In this document: positions 716 through 18,329 of the stretch, in pieces
Layout: each line of letters starts with the position of its first letter
Position numbering within the stretch: the first letter of the stretch is position 1
Virus genome (UHGV): UHGV-0381259
DNA: 21,264 nt
Direction: 5' to 3' (one strand)
Source of the DNA: a virus
The notes under the pieces: generated by a model
Told to the model about the DNA's origin: nothing
The model's database searches: none
Seen by the model: the letters and a program-made list of their open reading frames with translations, nothing else
Program-made: the position numbers and the translations under genes

Positions 716-1240
716 ATGACTGTTTTACACCTTGTAGCAGACCACCTTGTTAAGCAGGCTAATACAACCCATAGAAAGGGGGAGGTGCACGCAATATTAG
801 CAGATGCATATGGTCGTTCTGCTTTTAATCGGTATTATTATGCTTGTTTTCTTAACGTCCGTGAGTTTGTTTCAACTATTGATTCCAATTGGGGCAAGGT
901 CAAGCATGCAGATGTTCCAAAATTATTACGTGATAGTGTAAGTAGAAAGATAGAAGTTGAGCTCCAAAAATCAGAAAAAATTGGCGATATAACTTTATGT
1001 GAATATAAATCTAAAAAGAGCTTAATACGTACTTCACTGAACAATATGGCTTCAACTATGGCATTGGCATATACAATTAGGGGAGTTGTTGATTATGAGC
1101 CGGAAATTGAGATGATATTCTGTAATGGCAGTTTTTCGATTAATAAAACATCAGTGGCTTCGGCTAAGGGGTGGCTACAAACCATTAATTCAGAAAGATC
1201 GAAGGTTACCAGAATTATGAAGGAGATTGGCTTTGTCTAA
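716..1240 (+). CDS. Hypothetical protein, 174 aa, first gene of AT-rich cargo cassette
   Basis: Clean ATG ORF with purine-rich RBS (AAAGGGTAGG) upstream; AT-rich codon usage unlike the phage late genes; no recognisable catalytic motif. Confidence 0.6.
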   Translation: MTVLHLVADHLVKQANTTHRKGEVHAILADAYGRSAFNRYYYACFLNVREFVSTIDSNWGKVKHADVPKLLRDSVSRKIEVELQKSEKIGDITLCEYKSKKSLIRTSLNNMASTMALAYTIRGVVDYEPEIEMIFCNGSFSINKTSVASAKGWLQTINSERSKVTRIMKEIGFV

Positions 1241-1970
1241 CCAGAAAATATTATCAGAATTGTTGGTAAAATTCCCGTTCATAAAAGTTAAAGATGTAAC
1301 AGATTTTATGGATACAATTCTGTTGATCATCCCAATTAACAAAATAGTACCATTGTCTGCTTCGAATAGTATAACAAAACGCCAGATATCTTTATTGGTG
1401 AAACGAATAACAGAAAAGCTAAATGTAAGAGTGTTGATTAGTTACTCACCATTTTCAGATAAAGACAATATTGAAGCGGCTTTAGTGGCGTTAGCGAGAA
1501 GTAATTTTAAAAAAGGGAAGATATCTGATTTGAATTTATCTTTCTTTGATTCGCAAAACGCAGTGCTTTATGTCTTTTGTAAAAACCTTACATTATCAGA
1601 ACGCGAGAAGTGGGAGTCGTTAGTTGTAGGGATATTAAACGGTTTTAATATAAAAGTGACTTCATTTGTATATGAGGCTAAAAATAATCCTGAACCTACA
1701 ATGATGGTTATTTTAAGAGCGGCAAAAAAATGTCAGCCCTTTGATCTTCCAAGATTGTTCAGTCAACTTGATAATGGCGATTATCATATTGAATCACTTG
1801 ATTGGCTGAATGGGAAGCTAGACAACTTACGTAAGAAAGGATTTTTATTAAGAAGCCATGACGGAACTTATAGAATGACATTGTCAGGGTTAGAAATAGT
1901 TCCAGTGACTAAATCTAGGCAAAGTTCTGATATAGAGAGGGTCCTTTATCTTGCACGCAAACATCTATAG
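1227..1970 (+). CDS. Hypothetical protein, about 247 aa, second gene of cargo cassette (start uncertain)
   Basis: ORF overlaps the stop of the previous gene, suggesting translational coupling; track start is TTG at 1227, first in-frame ATG near 1305. Contains VRVLISYSPFSDKD and LTLSEREKWESL motifs (see findings). Confidence 0.55.
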   Translation: MALSNQKILSELLVKFPFIKVKDVTDFMDTILLIIPINKIVPLSASNSITKRQISLLVKRITEKLNVRVLISYSPFSDKDNIEAALVALARSNFKKGKISDLNLSFFDSQNAVLYVFCKNLTLSEREKWESLVVGILNGFNIKVTSFVYEAKNNPEPTMMVILRAAKKCQPFDLPRLFSQLDNGDYHIESLDWLNGKLDNLRKKGFLLRSHDGTYRMTLSGLEIVPVTKSRQSSDIERVLYLARKHL

Positions 1971-2046
1971 TGGTATATTCGCGTTGGTAGTGGCGTTCAC
2001 GAGAGTATGCATCATGCTCATTTGTGAAGGTCGCGGACAGAATGTG

Positions 2047-2097
2047 CGCCTGCGAATCAGCAGTCGTTCCTTCGAAACGTCTGCTGATTCGCAGGCG
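2047..2097 (+). ncRNA. Candidate structured RNA element: perfect 17-bp inverted repeat hairpin upstream of the RT (possible retron msd-like stem)
   Basis: CGCCTGCGAATCAGCAG (2047-2063) pairs perfectly with CTGCTGATTCGCAGGCG (2081-2097); 17-nt loop; no U-tract after the stem; 45 bp upstream of the RT start codon. Confidence 0.3.
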
Positions 2098-2141
2098 TCA
2101 TCAACGAAAGTTTTCATCAGCTTTGCTTAAGGATTGACCTT

Positions 2142-3119
2142 ATGAAAACGCCACTACCCTTATTTTTCACATTCACTGATGCCGAACAGTTTCTTAAGGC
2201 GTTGAGCACACCGCTGAGAGATAGATATTCTGCGGAACTTATTCGACTACAAGGCCTCAGGCTTCCCCCATTAGTTTCTTGGAGTATCTTGTCTGTTGCC
2301 ATTGGCGTAAGCCCACAATTTATTACTTCGTTAATTAAGAATAAGTCAAAATACTATCGTGTTTTTTCTATTTCCAAAGGAAGAGGAAAGAAAAAAAGAA
2401 TTATTGAAGCACCCAAGGTTAGTATAAAAATCATTCAGTCTTGGGTCGCTCATCATTTAAGCATTAATCATAGTCTTGGCATAAGTGAAAATGCATATGC
2501 TTTTATCCCAGGTAAGAATGGGATATATGAAGCTGCAAGTAAACATTGTGGTGCAAAATGGATCCTGTCTATTGATTTAAGAGATTTTTTCCATACGATC
2601 ACTTCAGATATAGTGATTTCAACATTAGTTGAAATCGGATATAGAGCCGATCAGGCTGCTAAATTGAGTGAATTACTTACCTTGAATCAGAGACTTCCGC
2701 AAGGTGCGCCAAGTAGCCCTGTTATCTCAAATTTAGTATTTAGGTCAACTGACTTAAAGATTAATGAGTTGATTTCTAATACGGGTATTAAATATACTAG
2801 ATATGCTGATGATTTGACCTTCTCCGGTGATGATGAAACATTTGATATCGAGGAACTTAAAGATAATGTTGTAGAGTTGTTACTATCTGATAATTGGGTT
2901 GTGGCTGAGGAAAAACTCAGAATAGCTAGGATTCCTAATAGATTAAAAGTACATGGTTTTCTAGTTCATGAAAATAAACCTAGATTGACTAAAGGCTATC
3001 GAAATAAAATTAGAGCATATAAACATTTATTGAGGACTGGGAAAATAGTTGAGAAGGATTTTGATAAAATTAAAGGGCATGTTAACTATAGTGAATATAT
3101 TGATAGATTGAATGAGTAA
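2142..3119 (+). CDS. Reverse transcriptase, retron-type (325 aa, RT core only)
   Basis: RT motifs in the ORF: ILSIDLRDFFHTI, LPQGAPSSPVISNLVF, YTRYADDLTFSG (YADD catalytic box), KVHGFLV; size and motif spacing match compact retron RTs such as Ec86 (from memory). AAGGA RBS 8 nt upstream. Confidence 0.9.
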   Translation: MKTPLPLFFTFTDAEQFLKALSTPLRDRYSAELIRLQGLRLPPLVSWSILSVAIGVSPQFITSLIKNKSKYYRVFSISKGRGKKKRIIEAPKVSIKIIQSWVAHHLSINHSLGISENAYAFIPGKNGIYEAASKHCGAKWILSIDLRDFFHTITSDIVISTLVEIGYRADQAAKLSELLTLNQRLPQGAPSSPVISNLVFRSTDLKINELISNTGIKYTRYADDLTFSGDDETFDIEELKDNVVELLLSDNWVVAEEKLRIARIPNRLKVHGFLVHENKPRLTKGYRNKIRAYKHLLRTGKIVEKDFDKIKGHVNYSEYIDRLNE

Positions 3120-3139: not shown

Positions 3140-4170
3140 TAATTTAATGTGTATATTCCAAAGGATATGATTTTATCTCCTATCCAGTTATTTAACTCTT
3201 CTAGTCTTCTCTGTAATGGTATTAACTCATTCCTCACAAAAACAAGGCTTGCCTTCTCCACATCCCCAAAACCCCCAACATTATTAGGCATTATCCCCAT
3301 CATTTGTGGGGGTACACGATGCGCCGCCATCATGTCGTCCCGGCTTACGTTCTTGATGTTCAGAAACTCATCCTTCGCCGCGACTTCTGATAACGGGATA
3401 ATCTGAAGTCCGTCCTTTTTGCCGTTAGGAGAGTACATAAACAGATTGCGGAAGTTACCTGGTCCTTTGGCGCTTTTCATTGCATTGCGGAGGTTGTTCA
3501 CATCCTCCTGGTTTTGTGCGGCGTCGGTCATGTACATGATGAAGCCTGCATGACTGCCGTTGATGTAATACTTCCGGCGGAACAGCGTGGCGGACTCGTT
3601 GAGCAGGGCTGACGGAATGGCAGAAAGATAACCGGGCAGGCCGTAGATCTCCTGGTTGATGTCCGGTTCCATCAGATGAAAAATGCTGCCTTTCGTGAAC
3701 TGATACGGCTGGGTTGTCATACCGTATTGCACAAACCAGTAGGTATCCAGGTCTAACCCGCGTCGGGTGTATTTTGCCAGAGCAGGCTCAAGGGCGATAA
3801 CTTCACCAAACCGGTTCGTGCGTTTCTCCAGGTAGGCGTTACCAAATACCAGATAGTCCTGCACAAAACGTGAAAAAGCCTGTTGGCTGAGCAGCGGGTG
3901 AGGGATGTAGGTGCTGGTCAGAATGTTGCATTTCACCGCAATCGGTGAGCTGTGATGCACGGCGGCGCGGAAGGTTCGCGCCAGTCCGTCAAAGCTGACG
4001 GGAGGCTCATACCAGCGATCTGTCTGTACGCATTCCACATAGTCCAGCAGTTCGCGGCGGTCAAGTACTGGAATGGGATCACCGAAGCTGAAAGCCTCAG
4101 CCGTTGGAGCGTTGCCTGGTTTTGTGTTGTGATCAACCTTTACCAGTTTGATGTTTTTATGTTTGCTCAT
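3139..4170 (-). CDS. Q: Portal vertex protein Q (P2 gpQ family)
   Basis: 343-aa product with strong similarity to P2 gpQ as recalled (PVLDRR..LDYVEC...WYEPPVSF...RAAVHHSSPI...FVRNELIPLQ); correct size and position next to the terminase gene. Confidence 0.93.
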   Translation of the reverse strand: MSKHKNIKLVKVDHNTKPGNAPTAEAFSFGDPIPVLDRRELLDYVECVQTDRWYEPPVSFDGLARTFRAAVHHSSPIAVKCNILTSTYIPHPLLSQQAFSRFVQDYLVFGNAYLEKRTNRFGEVIALEPALAKYTRRGLDLDTYWFVQYGMTTQPYQFTKGSIFHLMEPDINQEIYGLPGYLSAIPSALLNESATLFRRKYYINGSHAGFIMYMTDAAQNQEDVNNLRNAMKSAKGPGNFRNLFMYSPNGKKDGLQIIPLSEVAAKDEFLNIKNVSRDDMMAAHRVPPQMMGIMPNNVGGFGDVEKASLVFVRNELIPLQRRLEELNNWIGDKIISFGIYTLN

Positions 4171-4874
4171 TCTGCCAGCTCCTCGTTAGCAAGAGGCCAT
4201 TCGCACATAAACAGCATTCCCCAGTCCTCTGCTGATAATTCTTTTTTCATATCATTCAGCCAGTTATCAGTAAACAACATTGCTCCTGATGCTACTGCAT
4301 CATCAGCGGTGAATACCATGCGGGTTACACTGTTGTTTCTGCTTAGCTTTTTATATTCCTGCCATGCCTCCGGGTTAGGGCTGGGAGTGGTGTAGTAGGT
4401 GGCGTGGTGGTGTGCGTGCAAGGACATTCCTTTGGCGAGAGTAATCATATTTCTCGGTGATTCAGCCCAGGCATACTCTGACACGTAGACATTTCCACTG
4501 AGTGCGGCGGCGTGGCACTTGAGGTCGATAAAATAAATGACCGCACCATTGGGAAACTCCAGATATGTTTTGCCAGATTTTATTTTTCCAGTGCGCGTAT
4601 AAGCTGCGGTCTGGCTTAAAAATGCTGACACATAGGCTTTGACTGCCTGCGCTGATGCGGTGCTGCAGCAGAGGAAAATCTGGTTACGCCCGGTATGCAG
4701 TGCATCGATCAGGGCCTCATAGGCAAAAAAGAAATCCGCTCCTGCCTGGCGCATTTTTGTGAGTAAACGGTTTCTACTCTTTGGGCCAGTGTTCCACTCA
4801 TACTGGTAATCAAAGAAAGTGCTATCCACCGGAAGTCCCGCGATAGTCATGAGGTTAGTTGGGATTGGGGGCAT
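4167..4874 (-). CDS. Terminase-ATPase-domain paralog (truncated gpP-like protein, about 235 aa)
   Basis: Product aligns to the N-terminal ATPase region of the adjacent gpP (FFFAYEALIDALHTGRNQIFL vs FYFAHEALIDALLTGRNQIFL; FPNGAVIYF vs LPNGATLYF; SGNVYVSEYAWA vs HGNLYLDEYFWI; LFMCEW vs LLMCEF) but has no nuclease half. Its start overlaps the P stop (TGATG) and its stop overlaps the Q start (ATGA). Confidence 0.6.
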   Translation of the reverse strand: MPPIPTNLMTIAGLPVDSTFFDYQYEWNTGPKSRNRLLTKMRQAGADFFFAYEALIDALHTGRNQIFLCCSTASAQAVKAYVSAFLSQTAAYTRTGKIKSGKTYLEFPNGAVIYFIDLKCHAAALSGNVYVSEYAWAESPRNMITLAKGMSLHAHHHATYYTTPSPNPEAWQEYKKLSRNNSVTRMVFTADDAVASGAMLFTDNWLNDMKKELSAEDWGMLFMCEWPLANEELAE

Positions 4875-6640
4875 CAAAAAATCTCCACAATATTGCTGGT
4901 ATTGGCGGACTCGCCCTGCAGCGGTTCGTTAAACAGTGCGTGCATTGTTGCCCAGGCCAGATCGGCATGGCTGGCTTCTTCGCTGCGGCTGGCTTCATAG
5001 GTCGGGCGGTTGCCGCTGGCGGTGGTGGCGCGACGGATTGCCATAAATGACTGCGCAATGTCGGTGTGCCCGGCGTCAAACTCCAGACGGCGGTGGCTGA
5101 TAATGTCGTAGGCCTTGAGTACCAGGGCGTTTTTAACGTTGGGGTTGTAGACAAACTCCCGGACGGCAGGAAAGAACGCTTTCACGTTCTCGTAAACTCC
5201 GTGACCGACACCTGTCGAGTCGATACCGATATAGGTCACGTTGTACTGTTCGGTCAGTTTTTTGATGGCGTCAGCCTGGGCGCGGAAGTCCATCCCGCGC
5301 CACTGGTGACGCTCAAGAATGCGAAACTTACCGCCTGGCACGGCTGGCGGTGCCACCACCACGCATCCGGCGCTGTCGCCGTTCTGCGTACCTTTTGCCG
5401 GGTCATAACCGATCCACACTTCTCGCCAGCCAAACGGGCGCAGGGCCAGTGCATGAAAGTCGGTCCAGACTTCCCAACTGTCCACCATGCATGCCTGCAG
5501 CTCGCTGAGCGGAAATACGGACGCGAGATCGTCCACGAATTCACACATCAGCAGGTTCTGGTATTCGTCCGGGCTGTATTCCATGCGCAACTGGTCAAGG
5601 TCGAACAGGTTACAGCCGCCGCGCACCGCATCTTCCACGGTGACTATCTGGCGGTATTGCCCGTCTGCACACAGCAGGCCTGGAGCCAGATTGCTGTGGG
5701 ACAGGTCGATGTCCACCTTGTCGGCTTTATTGCGCCCACGGTTGAATAGCGCACCGGACCAGAACGGATAAGCACTGTGTGTCAGGCTGGATGGCGTGGA
5801 AAAATAGGTTTGTCGCCATTTTTTGTGAATAGCCATACCGGAAGCCACTTTGCGCAGCTCCTGGAATTTCGGTATCCAGAAATATTCATCCAGATACAGG
5901 TTTCCGTGGTAACTCTGGGCCGTGCGGGCATTGGTGCCGAGGAAATACAGTGTGGCCCCGTTGGGAAGCACCATCGGATCGCCTTTCAGCTCCACTTCCA
6001 CTTCTTTGGCGAAGTCGATGATGTACTGCTTAAAGACGTGGGCCTGTGCCTTGCTGGCGGAAAGGAAAATCTGGTTACGTCCGGTAAGCAGAGCGTCAAT
6101 CAGGGCTTCATGGGCAAAGTAAAAGGTCGCGCCGATCTGGCGTGACTTCAGCAGGTTGCGGATGCGGTTGGTTTTTCCGGCTTCCCACCAGTGGCGCTGG
6201 TAGTTGAACATGGAGGAATGGAAGATTTCTTCCAGCTTCTCAATCTGCTCATCGGTGAAAACATTCTTTTCCGGCTGACGGCGCGGGCCTTTGTTGCGGT
6301 TGGCGACGTTAGGGTTTAAGTCGACTTCGTTGCCGCCATTGTTAAACTTGCCGATCCGCGCGTGGCGTTCCGACTGGCGCGCCAGCAGGTCAATCTCTTT
6401 GAAATCTTTCCCTTCTTTGTGCTCCTTCATAATGAGCTGGCAGTAGCGTGCGGCGGTGGTGAGCTGCATCTGATCCAGCGGCCCATAGTCACCCCACTTG
6501 TCGCGTTTCTTCCAGCTGTGAACGGTTGCAACTTTCTCGCCCAGCATTTCAGCAATGCGGGCTACACGGTATCCCTGAAAGTACAGCAGCATGGCCTGCC
6601 GACGGGGATCGAGATCTGCGGGTGTCAGTGTGGTGTTCAT
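4874..6640 (-). CDS. P: Terminase large (ATPase) subunit P (P2 gpP family)
   Basis: 588-aa product matching P2 gpP in length and sequence character; divergent from the O gene across the late promoter region. Confidence 0.93.
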   Translation of the reverse strand: MNTTLTPADLDPRRQAMLLYFQGYRVARIAEMLGEKVATVHSWKKRDKWGDYGPLDQMQLTTAARYCQLIMKEHKEGKDFKEIDLLARQSERHARIGKFNNGGNEVDLNPNVANRNKGPRRQPEKNVFTDEQIEKLEEIFHSSMFNYQRHWWEAGKTNRIRNLLKSRQIGATFYFAHEALIDALLTGRNQIFLSASKAQAHVFKQYIIDFAKEVEVELKGDPMVLPNGATLYFLGTNARTAQSYHGNLYLDEYFWIPKFQELRKVASGMAIHKKWRQTYFSTPSSLTHSAYPFWSGALFNRGRNKADKVDIDLSHSNLAPGLLCADGQYRQIVTVEDAVRGGCNLFDLDQLRMEYSPDEYQNLLMCEFVDDLASVFPLSELQACMVDSWEVWTDFHALALRPFGWREVWIGYDPAKGTQNGDSAGCVVVAPPAVPGGKFRILERHQWRGMDFRAQADAIKKLTEQYNVTYIGIDSTGVGHGVYENVKAFFPAVREFVYNPNVKNALVLKAYDIISHRRLEFDAGHTDIAQSFMAIRRATTASGNRPTYEASRSEEASHADLAWATMHALFNEPLQGESANTSNIVEIF

Positions 6641-6781: not shown

Positions 6782-7615
6782 ATGACAGTGAAAGCAAAGC
6801 GTTTTCGCATCGGGGTGGAAGGTGCCACCACCGACGGACGCGAAATCCAGCGTGAATGGCTGGAACAGATGGCAGCCAGCTACAACCCGGCGGTGTACAC
6901 CGCGCTGATTAACCTTGAGCACATCAAGTCTTATCTGCCGGACAGCACCTTTAACCGCTACGGCAAGGTGACGGCGCTGTTTGCTGAAGAAATCACGGAA
7001 GGTCCGCTGGCGGGCAAGATGGCACTGTATGCCGACGTTGAGCCAACGGAGTCCCTGGTGGAACTGGTGAAAAAAGGCCAGAAATTATTCACCTCTATGG
7101 AAGTCAGCCCGAAGTTTGCTGATACGGGCAAAGCCTACCTGGTCGGCCTGGCTGCTACAGATGATCCCGCCAGTCTGGGCACTGAAATGCTGACATTCAG
7201 CGCCAGTGCAGCCCATAACCCGCTGGCAAACCGCAAGCAGAATCCTGCCAATCTCTTTACCGCTGCAGAGGAAACGGTGATCGAACTGGAAGAAATCCAG
7301 GATGACAAACCGTCCCTGTTTTCCCGCGTCACGGCGCTGTTCACCAAAAAAGAGCAGTCAGACGATGCCCGGTTCTCTGATGTGCATAAGGCCGTGGAGC
7401 TGGTCGCCACTGAGCAGCAAAACCTGAGTGCGCGCACCGAAAAATCCCTGTCTGAACAGGAAGAACGCCTGTCTGAGCTGGAGACAGCCCTGCAGGCACA
7501 GCAGACCGCCTTTAACGAACTGGTGGACAAGCTGAGCCATGAAGACAGCCGCCAGGACTACCGCCAGCGTGCAACAGGCGGTAACGCCCCCGCTGACACT
7601 CTGACCAATTGCTGA
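6782..7615 (+). CDS. O: Capsid scaffolding protein O (gpO family)
   Basis: 277-aa product; N-terminus MTVKAKRFRIGVEGATTDGREI and gene order (P<->O-N-M-L) match P2 gpO. Confidence 0.9.
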   Translation: MTVKAKRFRIGVEGATTDGREIQREWLEQMAASYNPAVYTALINLEHIKSYLPDSTFNRYGKVTALFAEEITEGPLAGKMALYADVEPTESLVELVKKGQKLFTSMEVSPKFADTGKAYLVGLAATDDPASLGTEMLTFSASAAHNPLANRKQNPANLFTAAEETVIELEEIQDDKPSLFSRVTALFTKKEQSDDARFSDVHKAVELVATEQQNLSARTEKSLSEQEERLSELETALQAQQTAFNELVDKLSHEDSRQDYRQRATGGNAPADTLTNC

Positions 7616-14487: not shown

Positions 14488-15085
14488 TCTGCTGCCACCG
14501 GGTTCAACTTCACTGGAGCGCCGACTGGCGCAAACCTGTAGCGGGATTTCTGATTTGCAGGTGCCGCTGCGTGACTTGTGGAATCCGGCTACCTGTCCGG
14601 TCAGCTTCCTGCCTTATCTCGCCTGGGCGTTCTCTGTGGATCGCTGGGATGAGGGCTGGACAGAAAGCGTCAAACGCCAGGTAGTGAAGGATGCTTTTTA
14701 TATTCATCAGCATAAAGGAACCACCAGTGCCGTGCGGCGGGTGGTGGAACCGTTCGGATTCCTGATCCGCATTATTGAGTGGTGGCAGACCGGAGAAACA
14801 CCGGGCACGTTTCGCCTGGATATCGGCGTGCAGGACCAGGGCATCACTGAAGATACCTATCTGGAACTTGAGCGACTGATAAGCGATGCCAAACCATGTA
14901 GCCGCCACATGATCGGTATGTCCATCAATCTGCAGACCAGCGGCCCGCATTGGGTGGGAGCCGCCAGCTATCTTGGCGAAGAAATCACGATCTATCCGTA
15001 TATCAACGAAACGATTATTTCCGGTGGCACCGCGCATGAAGGCGGGGCGGTCCATGTTATTGACACAATGAGAGTGAATCCATGA
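14480..15085 (+). CDS. I: Baseplate/tail-fibre attachment protein I (gpI family)
   Basis: 201-aa ORF overlapping the J stop and H start, in the P2 I position. Confidence 0.85.
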   Translation: MNSLLPPGSTSLERRLAQTCSGISDLQVPLRDLWNPATCPVSFLPYLAWAFSVDRWDEGWTESVKRQVVKDAFYIHQHKGTTSAVRRVVEPFGFLIRIIEWWQTGETPGTFRLDIGVQDQGITEDTYLELERLISDAKPCSRHMIGMSINLQTSGPHWVGAASYLGEEITIYPYINETIISGGTAHEGGAVHVIDTMRVNP

Positions 15086-16473
15086 GCACAAAATTTTATA
15101 CCCTGCTGACGGATATTGGCGCGGCGAAACTTGCCAGCGCCGCCGCGCTCGGTGTGCCGCTAAAAATTACCCATATGGCGGTGGGCGATGGCGGTGGAGT
15201 ATTGCCAACGCCGGACGCAAAGCAGACGGCACTGGTAAATGAGAAACGCCGGGCTGCGCTGAATATGCTTTATATCGACCCGCAGAACAGCAGCCAGATT
15301 ATTGCCGAACAGGTGATCCCTGAAAACGAGGGCGGTTGGTGGATACGTGAAGTGGGCTTGTTTGATGAGTCCGGGGCATTGATTGCCGTGGGCAACTGCC
15401 CGGAAAGCTATAAGCCGCAACTGGCTGAAGGTAGCGGGCGCACTCAGACCGTGCGCATGGTGCTGATTACCAGCAGCACGGACAATATCACCCTGAAAAT
15501 CGACCCTGCTGTAGTGCTGGCAACCCGCAAGTATGTGGATGACAAGGCACTGGAGCTGAAGGTGTACGCGGATGATCAGATGGCAAAACATCTTGCCGCA
15601 CCGGACCCGCATTCACAGTACGCGCCAAAAGCCAGCCCGACATTTACCGGAACCCCCAAAGCGCCGACGCCAGCGGCGGGGAATAATACCACGCAACTTG
15701 CGACCACCGCGTTTGTTCAGGCGGCACTGACAGCCCTGATTAATGGTGCGCCAGCCACGCTGGACACGCTGAAAGAAATAGCCGCAGCCATTAACAATGA
15801 TCCGAATTTCAGTACCACCATTAACAATGCGCTGGCACTAAAAGCACCGTTGTCGAGTCCGGCACTCACCGGAACGCCAACAGCCCCCACGGCGGCGCAG
15901 TCGGTCAACAATACACAGATTGCCACTACGGCTTTTGTGAAATCGGCGATTGCAGGAATGGTGGGTTCTGCACCTGCTGCACTGGATACACTGAACGAAC
16001 TGGCGGCGGCACTGGGGAATGATCCGAACTTTGCCACGACAATGCTTAATGCGCTGGCAGGTAAACAACCGCTGGACAATACGCTTACCAATTTGAGTGG
16101 GAAGGATGTTGCCGGTCTTCTTGCATACCTTCAATTGGGAGAAGCGGCGAAACGGGATGTTGGCTCAGGGGCGGGACAAGTTCCTGATATGAGTAGTTTT
16201 CAGTCAGGTGGCGGGTGGTTTAAGTTGCCGAGTGGATATGTTATTCAGGCTTTCGAGGCGTCTTTTGATTCTAACGGGCTATATATCAATTTCCCTATAC
16301 CATTTCCGAGTAGCGTTATTGCTATTGTGCCAGGCGTTTTAATGTCAACGACTGCCTCTCCATCACAACAATTTCCATCAATACAATGTGACGTCAATGA
16401 TCTGACCCGTTTTTTTGCTAAATACAATATGGGTGGAATGAATGCTTCATATTTTATTGCTATAGGAAAATAA
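15082..16473 (+). CDS. H: Tail fibre protein H (constant N-terminal part plus a C-terminal variable tip encoded inside the invertible segment)
   Basis: N-terminus MSTKFYTLLTDIGAAKLASAAALGVPLKITHMAVGDGGG is the conserved P2 H / Mu S type; the C-terminal ~110 aa after LGEAAKR lie past the left crossover site and have a diverged homolog on the opposite strand at 17332-17682. Confidence 0.9.
   Translation: MSTKFYTLLTDIGAAKLASAAALGVPLKITHMAVGDGGGVLPTPDAKQTALVNEKRRAALNMLYIDPQNSSQIIAEQVIPENEGGWWIREVGLFDESGALIAVGNCPESYKPQLAEGSGRTQTVRMVLITSSTDNITLKIDPAVVLATRKYVDDKALELKVYADDQMAKHLAAPDPHSQYAPKASPTFTGTPKAPTPAAGNNTTQLATTAFVQAALTALINGAPATLDTLKEIAAAINNDPNFSTTINNALALKAPLSSPALTGTPTAPTAAQSVNNTQIATTAFVKSAIAGMVGSAPAALDTLNELAAALGNDPNFATTMLNALAGKQPLDNTLTNLSGKDVAGLLAYLQLGEAAKRDVGSGAGQVPDMSSFQSGGGWFKLPSGYVIQAFEASFDSNGLYINFPIPFPSSVIAIVPGVLMSTTASPSQQFPSIQCDVNDLTRFFAKYNMGGMNASYFIAIGK
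15634..16074 (+). repeat. Intragenic tandem duplication (two ~74-codon units) within tail fibre gene H
   Basis: Consecutive protein units ...TGTPKAPTPAAGNNTTQLATTAFVQAALTALINGAPATLDTLKEIAAAINNDPNFSTTINNALALKAPL and ...TGTPTAPTAAQSVNNTQIATTAFVKSAIAGMVGSAPAALDTLNELAAALGNDPNFATTMLNALAGKQPL. Confidence 0.7.
16118..16143. other. Candidate left crossover site (hix/gix-like) of the invertible segment
   Basis: TTCTTGCATACC-TT-CAATTGGGAGAA; outer half-site resembles the recalled hix/gix consensus TTCTTGAAAACC; inner half-site TTGGGAGAA is the inverted copy of the inner half of the right site. Confidence 0.45.
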
Positions 16474-16475
16474 CC

Positions 16476-16898
16476 ATGTATTTATTTTCGCCAAGCACAT
16501 TGGGTTTTTATCCCATCGAGATGAAAGAAGAATACCTTACCAATGGTTCATTACCATCTGATGTTATAGAGGTTTCTGATAGCGTCAGAAATGAATATAA
16601 CTTTGCGCCACCTGAAGGCAAACAGCTAAGTTCCAGCCAAAATATGCCAGTCTGGATTGATATTCCACCGGCGACACGTGAAGAGTTGATTGCTGCTGCC
16701 GAAAAAGAACGCCAGAAACTACTGGCCCATGCTGACGCTGTTATGCTGGACTGGCGAACTGAACTGATGCTGGGTGAAATCAGCGACGCCAACAAAGCTA
16801 AGCTGTCGGCGTGGCTGGCCTATAAAAATGAAGTTAAGTCGGCTGATGTGACAACTGACCCGGAGCGTGTTAACTGGCCTGTTCCCCCGGAGGCGTAG
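16476..16898 (+). CDS. G: Tail fibre assembly chaperone G (Tfa family), currently expressed orientation
   Basis: 140-aa product with the conserved Tfa C-terminal pattern (IAAAEKERQKLL...W.PVPPEA); directly follows H. Confidence 0.85.
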   Translation: MYLFSPSTLGFYPIEMKEEYLTNGSLPSDVIEVSDSVRNEYNFAPPEGKQLSSSQNMPVWIDIPPATREELIAAAEKERQKLLAHADAVMLDWRTELMLGEISDANKAKLSAWLAYKNEVKSADVTTDPERVNWPVPPEA

Positions 16899-17310
16899 GC
16901 CATTCAATATCTGGCGCACCGGAAGTATCGACCAGTTCCAGTGCGTCCAGATAATCCAGCCACAAATTATATTGCGCCAGTTCCTCACCTTTCAGACGAC
17001 CAATAGCCGCTTTACCAGGCCATTGTTTACTGTTCATATAATCGTTGGCCTGATTAATCAGTTGCTGCTTTTCAAGTTCGGCTGCAGCAATCTGTTCCTC
17101 ATGTGTTGGTGGTGGAATTTCAGTCCATGCAGGAAAACTATTTTCTCCAGCGATACGGATTTTTCCTTTCGGCGGTAATCCGGAAAACTCAATATACACT
17201 TGCTCATCAACTTCAACAGCATCATCTGGCCATGAGTCAGCTTGAGTGTAATCCTCTTTCATCTCCAGCGGATAGAAAGAGTTTGTAGTCGCGGAATATA
17301 TGTAATTCAT
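16870..17310 (-). CDS. Alternative tail fibre assembly chaperone G' (Tfa family), silent orientation
   Basis: 146-aa minus-strand product homologous to G (FYPLEMKEDY...IAAAELEKQQL...WPTPPGE); its 3' end overlaps the 3' end of G by about 29 bp. Confidence 0.8.
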   Translation of the reverse strand: MNYIYSATTNSFYPLEMKEDYTQADSWPDDAVEVDEQVYIEFSGLPPKGKIRIAGENSFPAWTEIPPPTHEEQIAAAELEKQQLINQANDYMNSKQWPGKAAIGRLKGEELAQYNLWLDYLDALELVDTSGAPDIEWPTPPGEQAS

Positions 17311-17331: not shown

Positions 17332-17682
17332 TTAACAGCCTAACGCTAAAAATGAAGCGCCGAGGCCAGGAGTACTGGCTCTGGATATAAATTTAACCGG
17401 GTCGGGACTAAAACCTGCACAGGCAATATAACCAACAGCCCCGCTATCTGGTGTGTAGTCTTGTGAGACCAAAACACGCAGACATCTGTTTGGAAATGCA
17501 ATCGGGAAATGGGTTACTACATCCTGTGCAATGCCTGGTGCGCCGATTGAGCCCCACTGAAGAATAAAACCTGATGGAAATTTTTGATATCCAGTACCTG
17601 AAACAGAAAGCGTGAAGCTACCCATATCAGGTATCTGATTCGCCCCTGTCCCTACATTCCTTTTAGCCGCTTCTCCCAAACC
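17332..17682 (-). CDS. Alternative tail-fibre C-terminal tip Hv' (no own start; fused to H constant part after inversion)
   Basis: Minus-strand frame encodes ...[22 protein letters not shown]...FPSGFILQ...FPIAFP..., parallel to the H tip (LGEAAKRDVGSGAGQVPDMSSF...LPSGYVIQ...FPIPFP); the track ORF extension to 17781 is outside the segment and not a real N-terminus. Confidence 0.7.
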
Positions 17683-17696
17683 AACGTTTAAGAAAA
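17671..17696. other. Candidate right crossover site (hix/gix-like) of the invertible segment
   Basis: TTCTCCCAAACC-AA-CGTTTAAGAAAA closely resembles the recalled Hin/Gin site consensus TTCTTGAAAACC-AA-GGTTTTTGATAA. Confidence 0.5.
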
Positions 17697-17750
17697 TGTA
17701 GTTTTCCCCCCTAGCTGGCATCATTTGGGCTTTTGCATGAGGGAAAACAA

Positions 17751-18329
17751 ATGCAGGTTGGCTATGTGCGCGTATCAACAAATGAACAAAATACCGCGCT
17801 ACAGCGTGACGCGCTGGAACGGTCGGGATGTGAGCTAATTTTCGAGGATAAAATCAGCGGTAAATCGACAAACAGGCCAAGGTTAAATCGCGCACTCAGG
17901 CAACTTAATGCCGGTGATACTCTCGTTGTCTGGAAGCTCGACAGGCTCGGGCGTAGCATGCGCCATCTTGTCTCTATGACTGAAGAGCTTCGCCAGCGAG
18001 GGGTTAATTTCAGAAGCCTGACCGACAGTATTGATACCTCAACCCCGATGGGGCGATTTTTCTTTCACATCATGGGCGCTCTTGCAGAAATGGAACGCGA
18101 GTTAATCGTCGAACGAACCCGCGCCGGGCTGGATGCAGCCCGGGCACAAGGCAGGATCGGAGGTCGTAGGCCGAAGCTGACGCCTGATGAATGGGCTCAG
18201 GCTGGCCGGTTGATTGCGGCCGGAGAATCCCGACAGCGTGTTGCACTGATTTTTGATGTGGGCATATCGACGCTGTATAAAAAATTTCCGGCGACAAATC
18301 CCGTTGTGTCAGCCACCGGCGAACCCTGA
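17751..18329 (+). CDS. Serine recombinase, DNA invertase of the Gin/Hin/Pin/Cin family
   Basis: N-terminus [22 protein letters not shown] with the catalytic Ser context (YVRVST); resolvase catalytic domain plus C-terminal HTH ([22 protein letters not shown]); about 192 aa; adjacent to the right crossover site. Confidence 0.9.

Follow-up and report, generated by a model that had tools for sequence, protein, structure and literature searches.

The ATPase domain of the phage large terminase (TerL) is now known as a principal molecular pattern by which bacterial immune receptors (Avs1-3, Upx) recognise phages. This domain alone triggers EcAvs2 and Upx; by way of a bridging ATP, EcAvs2 makes contact with both the ATP on the terminase and the hydration shell of Mg2+ (PMC13601566). 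Phage T4 encodes a stand-alone TerL-ATPase-like protein, vs.8, which AlphaFold 3 places in the terminase-domain pocket of EcAvs2, and an anti-defence role was proposed for proteins of the vs.8 type (Evans et al. 2026, PMC13601566). Here we describe gene X of the viral genome UHGV-0381259, a stretch of 21,264 nucleotides that is referred to as the window. It is a P2-like prophage of Escherichia coli, and the queried region is 100% identical to strain MFDS1016424. X lies between the genes for the large terminase (P) and the portal (Q), and it encodes a stand-alone paralog of the ATPase domain of gpP. It is a genuine, selected, accessory gene in a subset of P2-like phages, and its product is tentatively viewed as a mimic or decoy of the terminase ATPase domain that acts outside the packaging motor.

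An initial annotation, made from the DNA alone, had pointed to a 235-amino-acid open reading frame (ORF) that overlaps both P and Q, resembles the ATPase portion of gpP and lacks a nuclease domain. Both overlaps were found as described, and the similarity proved genuine and well above what chance would give: in BLASTP, 81 of 237 positions are identical (34%; E = 3e-34), with residues 18-226 of X aligned to residues 142-368 of gpP, which correspond to the ATPase domain. The same arrangement was present in dozens of independent contigs. The only Pfam match of X is Terminase_6N (63 bits; cutoff 22). There is no match to Terminase_6C, the C-terminal RNase H-like nuclease domain, and the protein ends 9 residues past the ATPase lid. 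The N-terminal Terminase_5 region, a gpP-like helix-turn-helix (HTH), was detected only in gpP, and X starts about 20 residues ahead of the Q-motif. What is left is a complete terminase-type ATPase domain of the additional-strand, catalytic-glutamate (ASCE) class, lid included.

An AlphaFold2 model of X built with 25 homologues (predicted local distance difference test 81, predicted template modelling score 0.82) is confident except in the N-terminal 15 residues, which are disordered. Its best PDB matches are TerL ATPase domains, namely those of T4 gp17 (TMq 0.71), P74-26, D6E and HK97, the first three spanning TMq values of 0.65-0.72; PhiV-1 TerL, the terminase in the Avs3 complex, and many predicted viral terminases were also matched. 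The segment in which X and gpP are closest is P-loop/alpha1/beta2. As a profile search of PDB sequences with the X and gpP alignment returned no terminase, the mapping of residues onto solved TerLs rests on the AlphaFold2 secondary structure and on published motif positions. The identity of 34% and the depth of the family described below bear out the earlier proposal of an ancient, divergent paralog, and X appears to descend from an old duplication of the gpP ATPase domain. A recent duplication of the resident gpP was considered and rejected on the same two grounds and on GC content at third codon positions (0.52 in X vs 0.69 in gpP; 0.27-0.31 in the retron cargo of the prophage).

In P2 itself Q and P adjoin directly, as the initial annotation had stated: they overlap by 1 nucleotide within one 'P operon', which is served by one late promoter and ends with a terminator behind Q. 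X has therefore been inserted into this operon. Its start and stop overlap the neighbouring genes on either side (Table 1), which suggests translational coupling to both. Equivalents of the P/X overlap (TGATG, TAATG or ATGA) and the ATGA at the X/Q junction were present in six of six lineages examined. A Shine-Dalgarno-like GGAG within the 3' end of gpP may serve as ribosome site of X and, where X is absent, of Q. No promoter-like or terminator-like sites were seen in X or just upstream. The genes for scaffold (O), capsid (N) and small terminase (M) are divergently oriented from position 6782 on.

X belongs to a recurrent family of proteins, 220-260 amino acids long, that occur in P2-like phages and prophages, chiefly those of Enterobacterales. 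A word-indexed search returned 55 clusters of X-like proteins of 220-241 amino acids with 93% to 34% identity, all carrying generic names, from Escherichia, Salmonella, Citrobacter, Klebsiella, Leclercia, Phytobacter, Pantoea, Yersinia and Buttiauxella. An exhaustive profile search yielded 484 proteins at E <= 1e-3, including dozens of short-form clusters (50% identity, about 220-290 amino acids). Short forms start about 20-30 residues ahead of the Q-motif and end right after the lid, and their length is conserved over more than 90 clusters. In every locus of the late type that was examined the order is P-X-Q with overlapping stops and starts; the loci are those of Yersinia phage MLG42, Y. enterocolitica phages 201.16 and 56.17, Escherichia phage 500465-1, loci of Pantoea, Buttiauxella, Yersinia and Pectobacterium, and a metagenomic P2-like phage with a Toprim primase. 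In IMG/VR a short form was found in 78 of 80 recovered loci, of which 75 fit P-X-Q, two are of the early type described below and one is irregular. A pattern-limited scan of species-representative genomes gave 12 loci, mostly from Enterobacterales. The survey of P2-like genomes called for by the initial annotation thus uncovered a syntenic family that is not unique to this prophage. Among the 12 species-representative and 80 IMG/VR loci, no X homolog was found on satellites or outside P2-like phage contexts.

A sister clade in Providencia and metagenomes occupies a different site. Its members are encoded downstream of replication gene A, on the strand of the early operon and amid small ORFs at the end of that operon, next to the cargo hotspot. 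They adjoin or overlap gpA, and in these phages P lies directly beside Q. The earlier suggestion that X is co-expressed with the packaging genes agrees with the place of X within the P-Q late operon but does not extend to the whole lineage. The early clade carries the motifs LHK-x-RQ-x-GAD and GDVY-x-SEW and is the sole robust clade in neighbour-joining trees (bootstrap 100%); support was 11% for monophyly of all short forms and 43% for a group of the late clade with Walker A ending in GAD, the early clade and a Pectobacterium form (P0065), and deep nodes were unresolved. Early and late swapped clades have four derived residues in common (Walker A Asp, Walker B Ser, Pro at E+7 and Tyr at E+28), on the basis of which we argue for common ancestry of the late and early GAD clades, that is, for one lineage that moved between two genomic sites. 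When deposited phage genomes were searched by tblastn with early-clade queries and with queries from the short forms without P-loop Lys and catalytic Glu described below, no such genes were retrieved.

Complete genomes of E. coli showed how optional the gene is. A P-Q junction was present in 1220 of 5426 genomes, and only 21 of these 1220 (about 1.7%) contained X; the flanks of X-less junctions matched at 95-97%. One gpP (WP_001098431.1) is identical in two prophages with X and one without, so X compensates for no change in gpP. The ratio of nonsynonymous to synonymous substitutions (dN/dS; Nei-Gojobori) was about 0.01 in gpP, 0.04-0.32 in Q and 0.14-0.43 in X; for X, values of 0.18-0.43 came with bootstrap confidence intervals, and in four pairs all of these lay below 1. 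Where the gpP ATPase domains of two phages share 63-90% identity, their X proteins share only 37-74%. Synonymous divergence of X and Q exceeded that of P in the same pairs, which indicates that the region is mosaic. X is also carried by isolated, plaque-forming phages (MLG42, YenM_201.16 and YenM_56.17); as these are viable, X is no poison of its own terminase.

In a comparison of the window with an X-less prophage (L019) the first 20 or so portal codons (window 4100-4170) were found to be wholly different (MSKHKNIKLV... vs MGKSKKNRAA...), and the two portals converge at TAEAFSFGD. In this single comparison the indel unit thus seems to comprise X together with the 5' end of Q. Broken copies of X were also encountered. 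In the record of Escherichia phage 500465-1 X is frameshifted and the portal is split as well, which suggests sequence errors in the record. In an IMG/VR prophage (L080) gpP is disrupted, and one ORF of 464 amino acids joins its nuclease domain to X; the two may be naturally fused, or the locus may be in decay or contain errors.

The active site was compared between 56 full-length gpP homologues and 93 short forms. The P-loop Lys and the catalytic Glu are both present in 56/56 full-length proteins and in 85 short forms; the Lys is lost in the other eight, seven of which have lost the Glu too. All full-length proteins combine a Walker A Thr or Ser with a Walker B Asp, a pairing retained in 19/93 short forms (one more has Asn and Asp). 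A Walker A Asp occurs in none of the full-length proteins and in 67 short forms, where it never coincides with a Walker B Asp (67/67): the Walker B residue is Ser in 59, Pro in four, Ala in two, and Leu and Gly in one each. The initial annotation had quoted the Walker B motifs correctly (GNLYLDEYFW in gpP, GNVYVSEYAW in X) and had taken the lost acidic residue as a sign of possible catalytic impairment. Catalytic residues are indeed altered, but 'impaired' is too simple a description, because the loss of the Walker B Asp is paired with a gain of Asp in place of the Walker A Thr, which had been missed, and the rest of the pocket is strongly conserved. In 25 X sequences F21, Q24, W27, K40, R42, G45, A46, D47 and the following helix are invariant, as are G127, Y130, S132, E133, W136 and the C-motif residues T159, T162 and S165. 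Judged by these alignments, the nucleotide pocket is the most conserved portion of a fast-evolving protein.

Ring ATPase activity needs elements that act between subunits (a trans-acting finger loop), and candidates for these were compared as well. The Gln of the loop T-N-x-x-T-A-Q-[GS] (TAQ loop) is found in 54/56 full-length proteins vs 1/93 short forms. Published positions of the trans-arginine are alpha2-beta3, as in R139 of P74-26 TerL, and alpha3-beta4, as in R158 of D6E (PMC5727402). Mapped from these two proteins (PMC5727402), the TAQ loop takes the alpha2-beta3 position and R276 of gpP the alpha3-beta4 position. The R276 column is Arg in 40/56 long forms; the late swapped clade has His in 37 and Arg in 21 sequences, and X of the window has His. 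X may thus have lost ring competence, with the trans positions borrowed from P74-26 and D6E. R239 of gpP (in TNARTAQ) was also considered as trans-arginine and rejected, as its column is variable in full-length gpP (R17, N10, S7, A7, others); the conserved element of this loop is T-A-Q-[GS], which is nearly invariant in full-length gpP.

Further variants of the short form were observed. The P-loop Arg is replaced by His (KMHQAGAD) in X of E. coli LS4 (L018) and Escherichia phage 500465-1 (L002). Seven short forms without P-loop Lys and catalytic Glu (P0142, P0062, P0092, P0149, P0192, P0193 and P0195) are predicted to be catalytically dead; P0142, whose locus was examined, fills the P-X-Q slot. 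Canonical short forms occur in Pectobacterium and Enterobacter. Among them, P0065 of Pectobacterium (48 cluster members) occupies the P-X-Q slot with a canonical Walker A Thr and Walker B Asp and no TAQ loop, and it may represent an intermediate state of the family.

Table 1. Features of gene X, its relatives and its surroundings (window positions unless another locus is named; gene X coordinates include the stop codon).
Feature	Position	Strand	Remarks
Gene X, 235 aa	4167..4874	minus	Stand-alone paralog of gpP ATPase domain; ATG 4874-4872, TGA 4169-4167
gpP, large terminase, 588 aa	4874..6640	minus	Full-length parent paralog; Pfam Terminase_5, Terminase_6N, Terminase_6C
gpQ, portal, 343 aa	3139..4170	minus	Start overlaps X stop
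gpP stop/X start overlap	4872..4876	minus	TGATG, read from sequence; putative translational coupling
X stop/Q start overlap	4167..4170	minus	ATGA, read from sequence; putative translational coupling
Shine-Dalgarno-like GGAG	4883..4886	minus	Read from sequence; 8 nt upstream of X ATG
X Q-motif (adenine-binding)	4794..4814	minus	FDYQYEW; gpP FNYQRHW
X deviant Walker A	4734..4757	minus	KMRQAGAD; gpP KSRQIGAT; Lys and Arg retained, terminal Thr to Asp
X loop ahead of Walker B strand	4497..4526	minus	DLKCHAAALS; without T-N-x-x-T-A-Q-[GS] of full-length gpP
X Walker B	4476..4496	minus	GNVYVSE; gpP GNLYLDE; Asp to Ser, catalytic Glu retained
X alpha3-beta4 loop and C-motif	4380..4421	minus	LHAHHHA and TYYTTPS; equivalent of gpP R276 is His, C-motif conserved
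gpP canonical Walker A	6125-6151	minus	
gpP TAQ loop	5912-5935	minus	
gpP canonical Walker B	5885-5905	minus	
Early-clade locus L010	5001-5750		
Early-clade locus L021	6001-6681		
Early-clade locus L023	6001-6738		
Early-clade locus L116	6453-7145	minus	
Early-clade locus L117			
P0142 (locus L013)	5001-5699		Short form without P-loop Lys and catalytic Glu
P0065 (locus L011)	5001-5750		Pectobacterium canonical short form
ORF of L080	3314-4708		
DinI-like gene	118-423	plus	Pfam DinI, E = 2e-22
Type IX retron module	716-3119	plus	HEPN_IX 716-1240, HTH_IX 1227-1970, RT_IX 2142-3119 (PADLOC, E = 4e-129)
Apparent invertible tail-fibre segment	15082-18329		
Fibre H	15082-16473	plus	
Tail-fibre chaperone	16476-16898	plus	
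Second chaperone	16870-17310	minus	
Alternative fibre C-terminus	17332-17781	minus	
Serine invertase	17733-18329		Resolvase and HTH_7

We infer that X is not a working motor subunit, as it has no DNA/TerS (small terminase)-binding N-terminus, no nuclease/portal-binding C-terminus and no TAQ loop. The initial annotation had speculated about packaging regulation or a decoy, for example against hijacking by satellites; nothing among the recovered loci points to satellites specifically. The role that we put first, with due reserve and short of calling it probable, is that of a protein which has no part in the motor and imitates the terminase ATPase domain or serves as its decoy. Having lost its motor tethers (the Terminase_5/HTH N-terminus, the nuclease domain, the TAQ loop and, in the subclade of the window, the candidate trans-arginine) and kept a conserved, rewired nucleotide pocket, X would act off the motor through nucleotide-dependent protein recognition. 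It would mimic the nucleotide-bound ATPase domain and thereby occupy factors that bind this domain, the likeliest being the host receptors triggered by it (Avs1-3, Upx). Such receptors might be bound and not activated, because X differs from gpP at both residues to which the general P-loop mechanism would assign the ordering of the catalytic Mg2+. Translational coupling to gpP would ensure that X is made along with its model and in a matching dose. Several traits fit a conflict-type accessory gene: optional presence, rapid evolution next to highly constrained partners, relocation between operons close to the cargo hotspot, and repeated loss of catalysis among relatives.

A close second, possible but somewhat less so, is that X regulates the packaging machine or helps in its assembly as one of its subunits: it would be an ATP-binding pseudo-subunit on gpP, gpM or the portal that would tune initiation, rate or fidelity, for instance by capping or nucleating the gpP ring or by gating portal docking. 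The P-X-Q position, kept with overlaps on both sides in all late-clade lineages, the conserved nucleotide pocket and the fact that X and gpP are most similar in the P-loop/alpha1/beta2 segment speak for such a role, and non-catalytic paralog subunits are common among ring ATPases. However, an identical gpP works without X, constraint on X is about 20-fold weaker than on its supposed partners, and no sign of co-variation between them was seen. In other phages TerS and portal are bound by N- and C-terminal regions that are missing from X, and the sister clade resides in an early operon away from P and Q. We consider it rather unlikely that X is a weapon between elements, that is, a dominant-negative terminase fragment directed at competing P2-like phages or P4-type satellites upon late-gene trans-activation. 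Loss of the TAQ loop and of the candidate trans-arginine would turn incorporated X into a ring poison, and patchy distribution and fast evolution suit a conflict gene. Yet gpP is near-invariant among co-circulating P2-like phages (dN/dS of about 0.01, identical proteins across prophages) and P4 uses the gpP of its helper, so X could not tell self from competitor. Moreover, phages with X are viable, a gene in the late operon would not be expressed in the lysogen, no promoter-like site lies in or just upstream of X, and no X homolog was found on a satellite among the recovered loci.

Slightly less probable still is an active monomeric ATPase or nucleotide switch engaged in another task, such as DNA metabolism linked to gpA, for which the swap would be a compensated, functional metal site. 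This would explain why catalytic Glu, P-loop Lys/Arg, Q-motif and C-motif are invariant in the GAD clade, why early-clade genes abut or overlap gpA and why canonical short forms persist in Pectobacterium and Enterobacter, but not why catalytically dead short forms share the P-X-Q slot or why R42 is His in one E. coli lineage; nor is there an extra domain hinting at a substrate. We regard it as highly improbable that X is a decaying remnant of a duplication whose frame is kept open only since translation of Q needs ribosome read-through. Tight coupling on both sides, relaxed constraint relative to the neighbours and occasional broken copies (phage 500465-1, L080) agree with decay, but dN/dS is significantly below 1 in four pairs, about 30 invariant residues are clustered in motifs despite an overall identity of 35-40%, length is conserved across the clusters, and the same lineage is maintained in the early-operon context without coupling to Q. 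Upkeep of the frame solely for coupling to Q was rejected on the basis of dN/dS and motif conservation.

The mimic or decoy favoured here has to be weighed against several observations. The sole precedent, vs.8, triggers EcAvs2 instead of blocking it. As the catalytic Glu, the P-loop Lys and the C-motif are retained, X could also be a functional ATPase, perhaps a slow one, or a nucleotide switch, and mimicry of the ATP state is not universal to the short forms, because some have lost P-loop Lys and catalytic Glu. A decoy that appears no sooner than gpP would not reach the sensor ahead of it, and the low prevalence in E. coli means that any benefit would be conditional. The data show homology, fold, motif map, synteny, optional presence and purifying selection; nucleotide binding, mimicry and the identity of the target are deduced. 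A more specific form of the decoy reading, which we consider doubtful, would make X the first case of a phage converting its own immune-recognised protein into a shield: a nucleotide-locked pseudo-terminase that plugs the Avs1-3/Upx pockets without triggering these receptors, the swap from Thr/Asp to Asp/Ser being an adaptation that uncouples binding from activation.

X lies near variable cargo to which it does not belong. The A-Q hotspot contains a type IX retron in the window and TIR, AIPR/DUF2971, DarTG, SEFIR or DEAD-helicase genes in other loci with X; as cargo differs from locus to locus while X stays, X is not part of it. Nor does X resemble a cargo-hotspot 'moron' of P2, which would be located in the variable A-Q region and have expression signals of its own and a foreign composition: X lies inside the P operon between P and Q, and its GC content at third codon positions differs from that of the cargo (0.52 vs 0.27-0.31). 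The early sister clade, however, does border the hotspot. PADLOC gave no match for X and strong matches for the neighbouring retron genes. The retron module is located just downstream of Q and has a GC content of 0.34-0.37 vs about 0.56 in the late genes of the phage. The DinI-like gene of the window is the conserved gene found ahead of this hotspot in related P2-like prophages of E. coli. The tail-fibre segment of the window appears to be invertible, with a fibre gene and chaperone on one strand and an alternative fibre C-terminus and chaperone on the other, followed by a serine invertase; it resembles host-range switches of the Gin/Cin/Pin type.

As far as the literature shows, the X family is recurrent, generically annotated and uncharacterised. 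NCBIfam and PADLOC hold no model dedicated to X. The family is annotated as 'terminase large subunit domain-containing protein', and PHROGs places X in phrog_3746, 'terminase large subunit'; this label, used also by the Prokaryotic Genome Annotation Pipeline (PGAP), hides the genes. PGAP starts X 24-45 nucleotides 3' of the conserved ATG in three loci (L015, L016 and L020; coding sequences of 663-684 vs 708 nucleotides), and annotated family proteins are therefore inconsistently truncated at the N-terminus. No publication discussing the gene was found in the literature, and a paper on the Yersinia phages that carry it leaves it unmentioned. X offers a presence/absence polymorphism on an identical terminase, a clean metal-site swap, and canonical as well as dead relatives in a tractable P2-like system. 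Whether X proves to be an immune decoy, a motor regulator or something else, a textbook packaging module would gain an accessory part that has gone unrecognised.

Compared with gpP of P2-like phages, X has the same fold, Q-motif, Walker A Lys/Arg, catalytic Glu, C-motif and operon. It differs by the absence of the Terminase_5/HTH region, of the nuclease domain and of a lid insertion of about 26 amino acids, by the Walker A Asp, the Walker B Ser, the lost TAQ loop and a His as candidate trans-arginine, and by being dispensable and about 20 times less constrained in evolution. Non-catalytic paralogs in ring ATPases, such as clamp-loader delta/delta' and the Rad51 paralogs, likewise combine a duplicated fold with altered catalytic residues and are encoded beside the active paralog, but they are essential, co-evolving members, whereas X is optional and does not co-vary with gpP. 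Ksap1 and Ksap2 are lineage-restricted accessory phage proteins with a fold like the terminase ATPase core that trigger KpAvs2/EcAvs2 and were suggested by their authors to be possible anti-defence proteins; unlike X, they are much smaller, partial folds not recognisable by sequence as terminase homologues. T4 vs.8 has no detectable sequence relation to X (hhalign probability 0.1, E = 0.62), lies outside the packaging operon, activates EcAvs2 and has canonical Walker A and B motifs (PMC13601566), in contrast to the swapped ones of X. It is nevertheless the only described analogue, since both proteins are phage-encoded, about 220 amino acids long, derived from the ATPase of the phage's own terminase, nuclease-less and restricted to one lineage. 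As their sequences are unrelated, X is of independent origin and convergent with vs.8, and P2-like phages are thus a second, unrelated lineage that has evolved and kept a stand-alone copy of the TerL ATPase domain.

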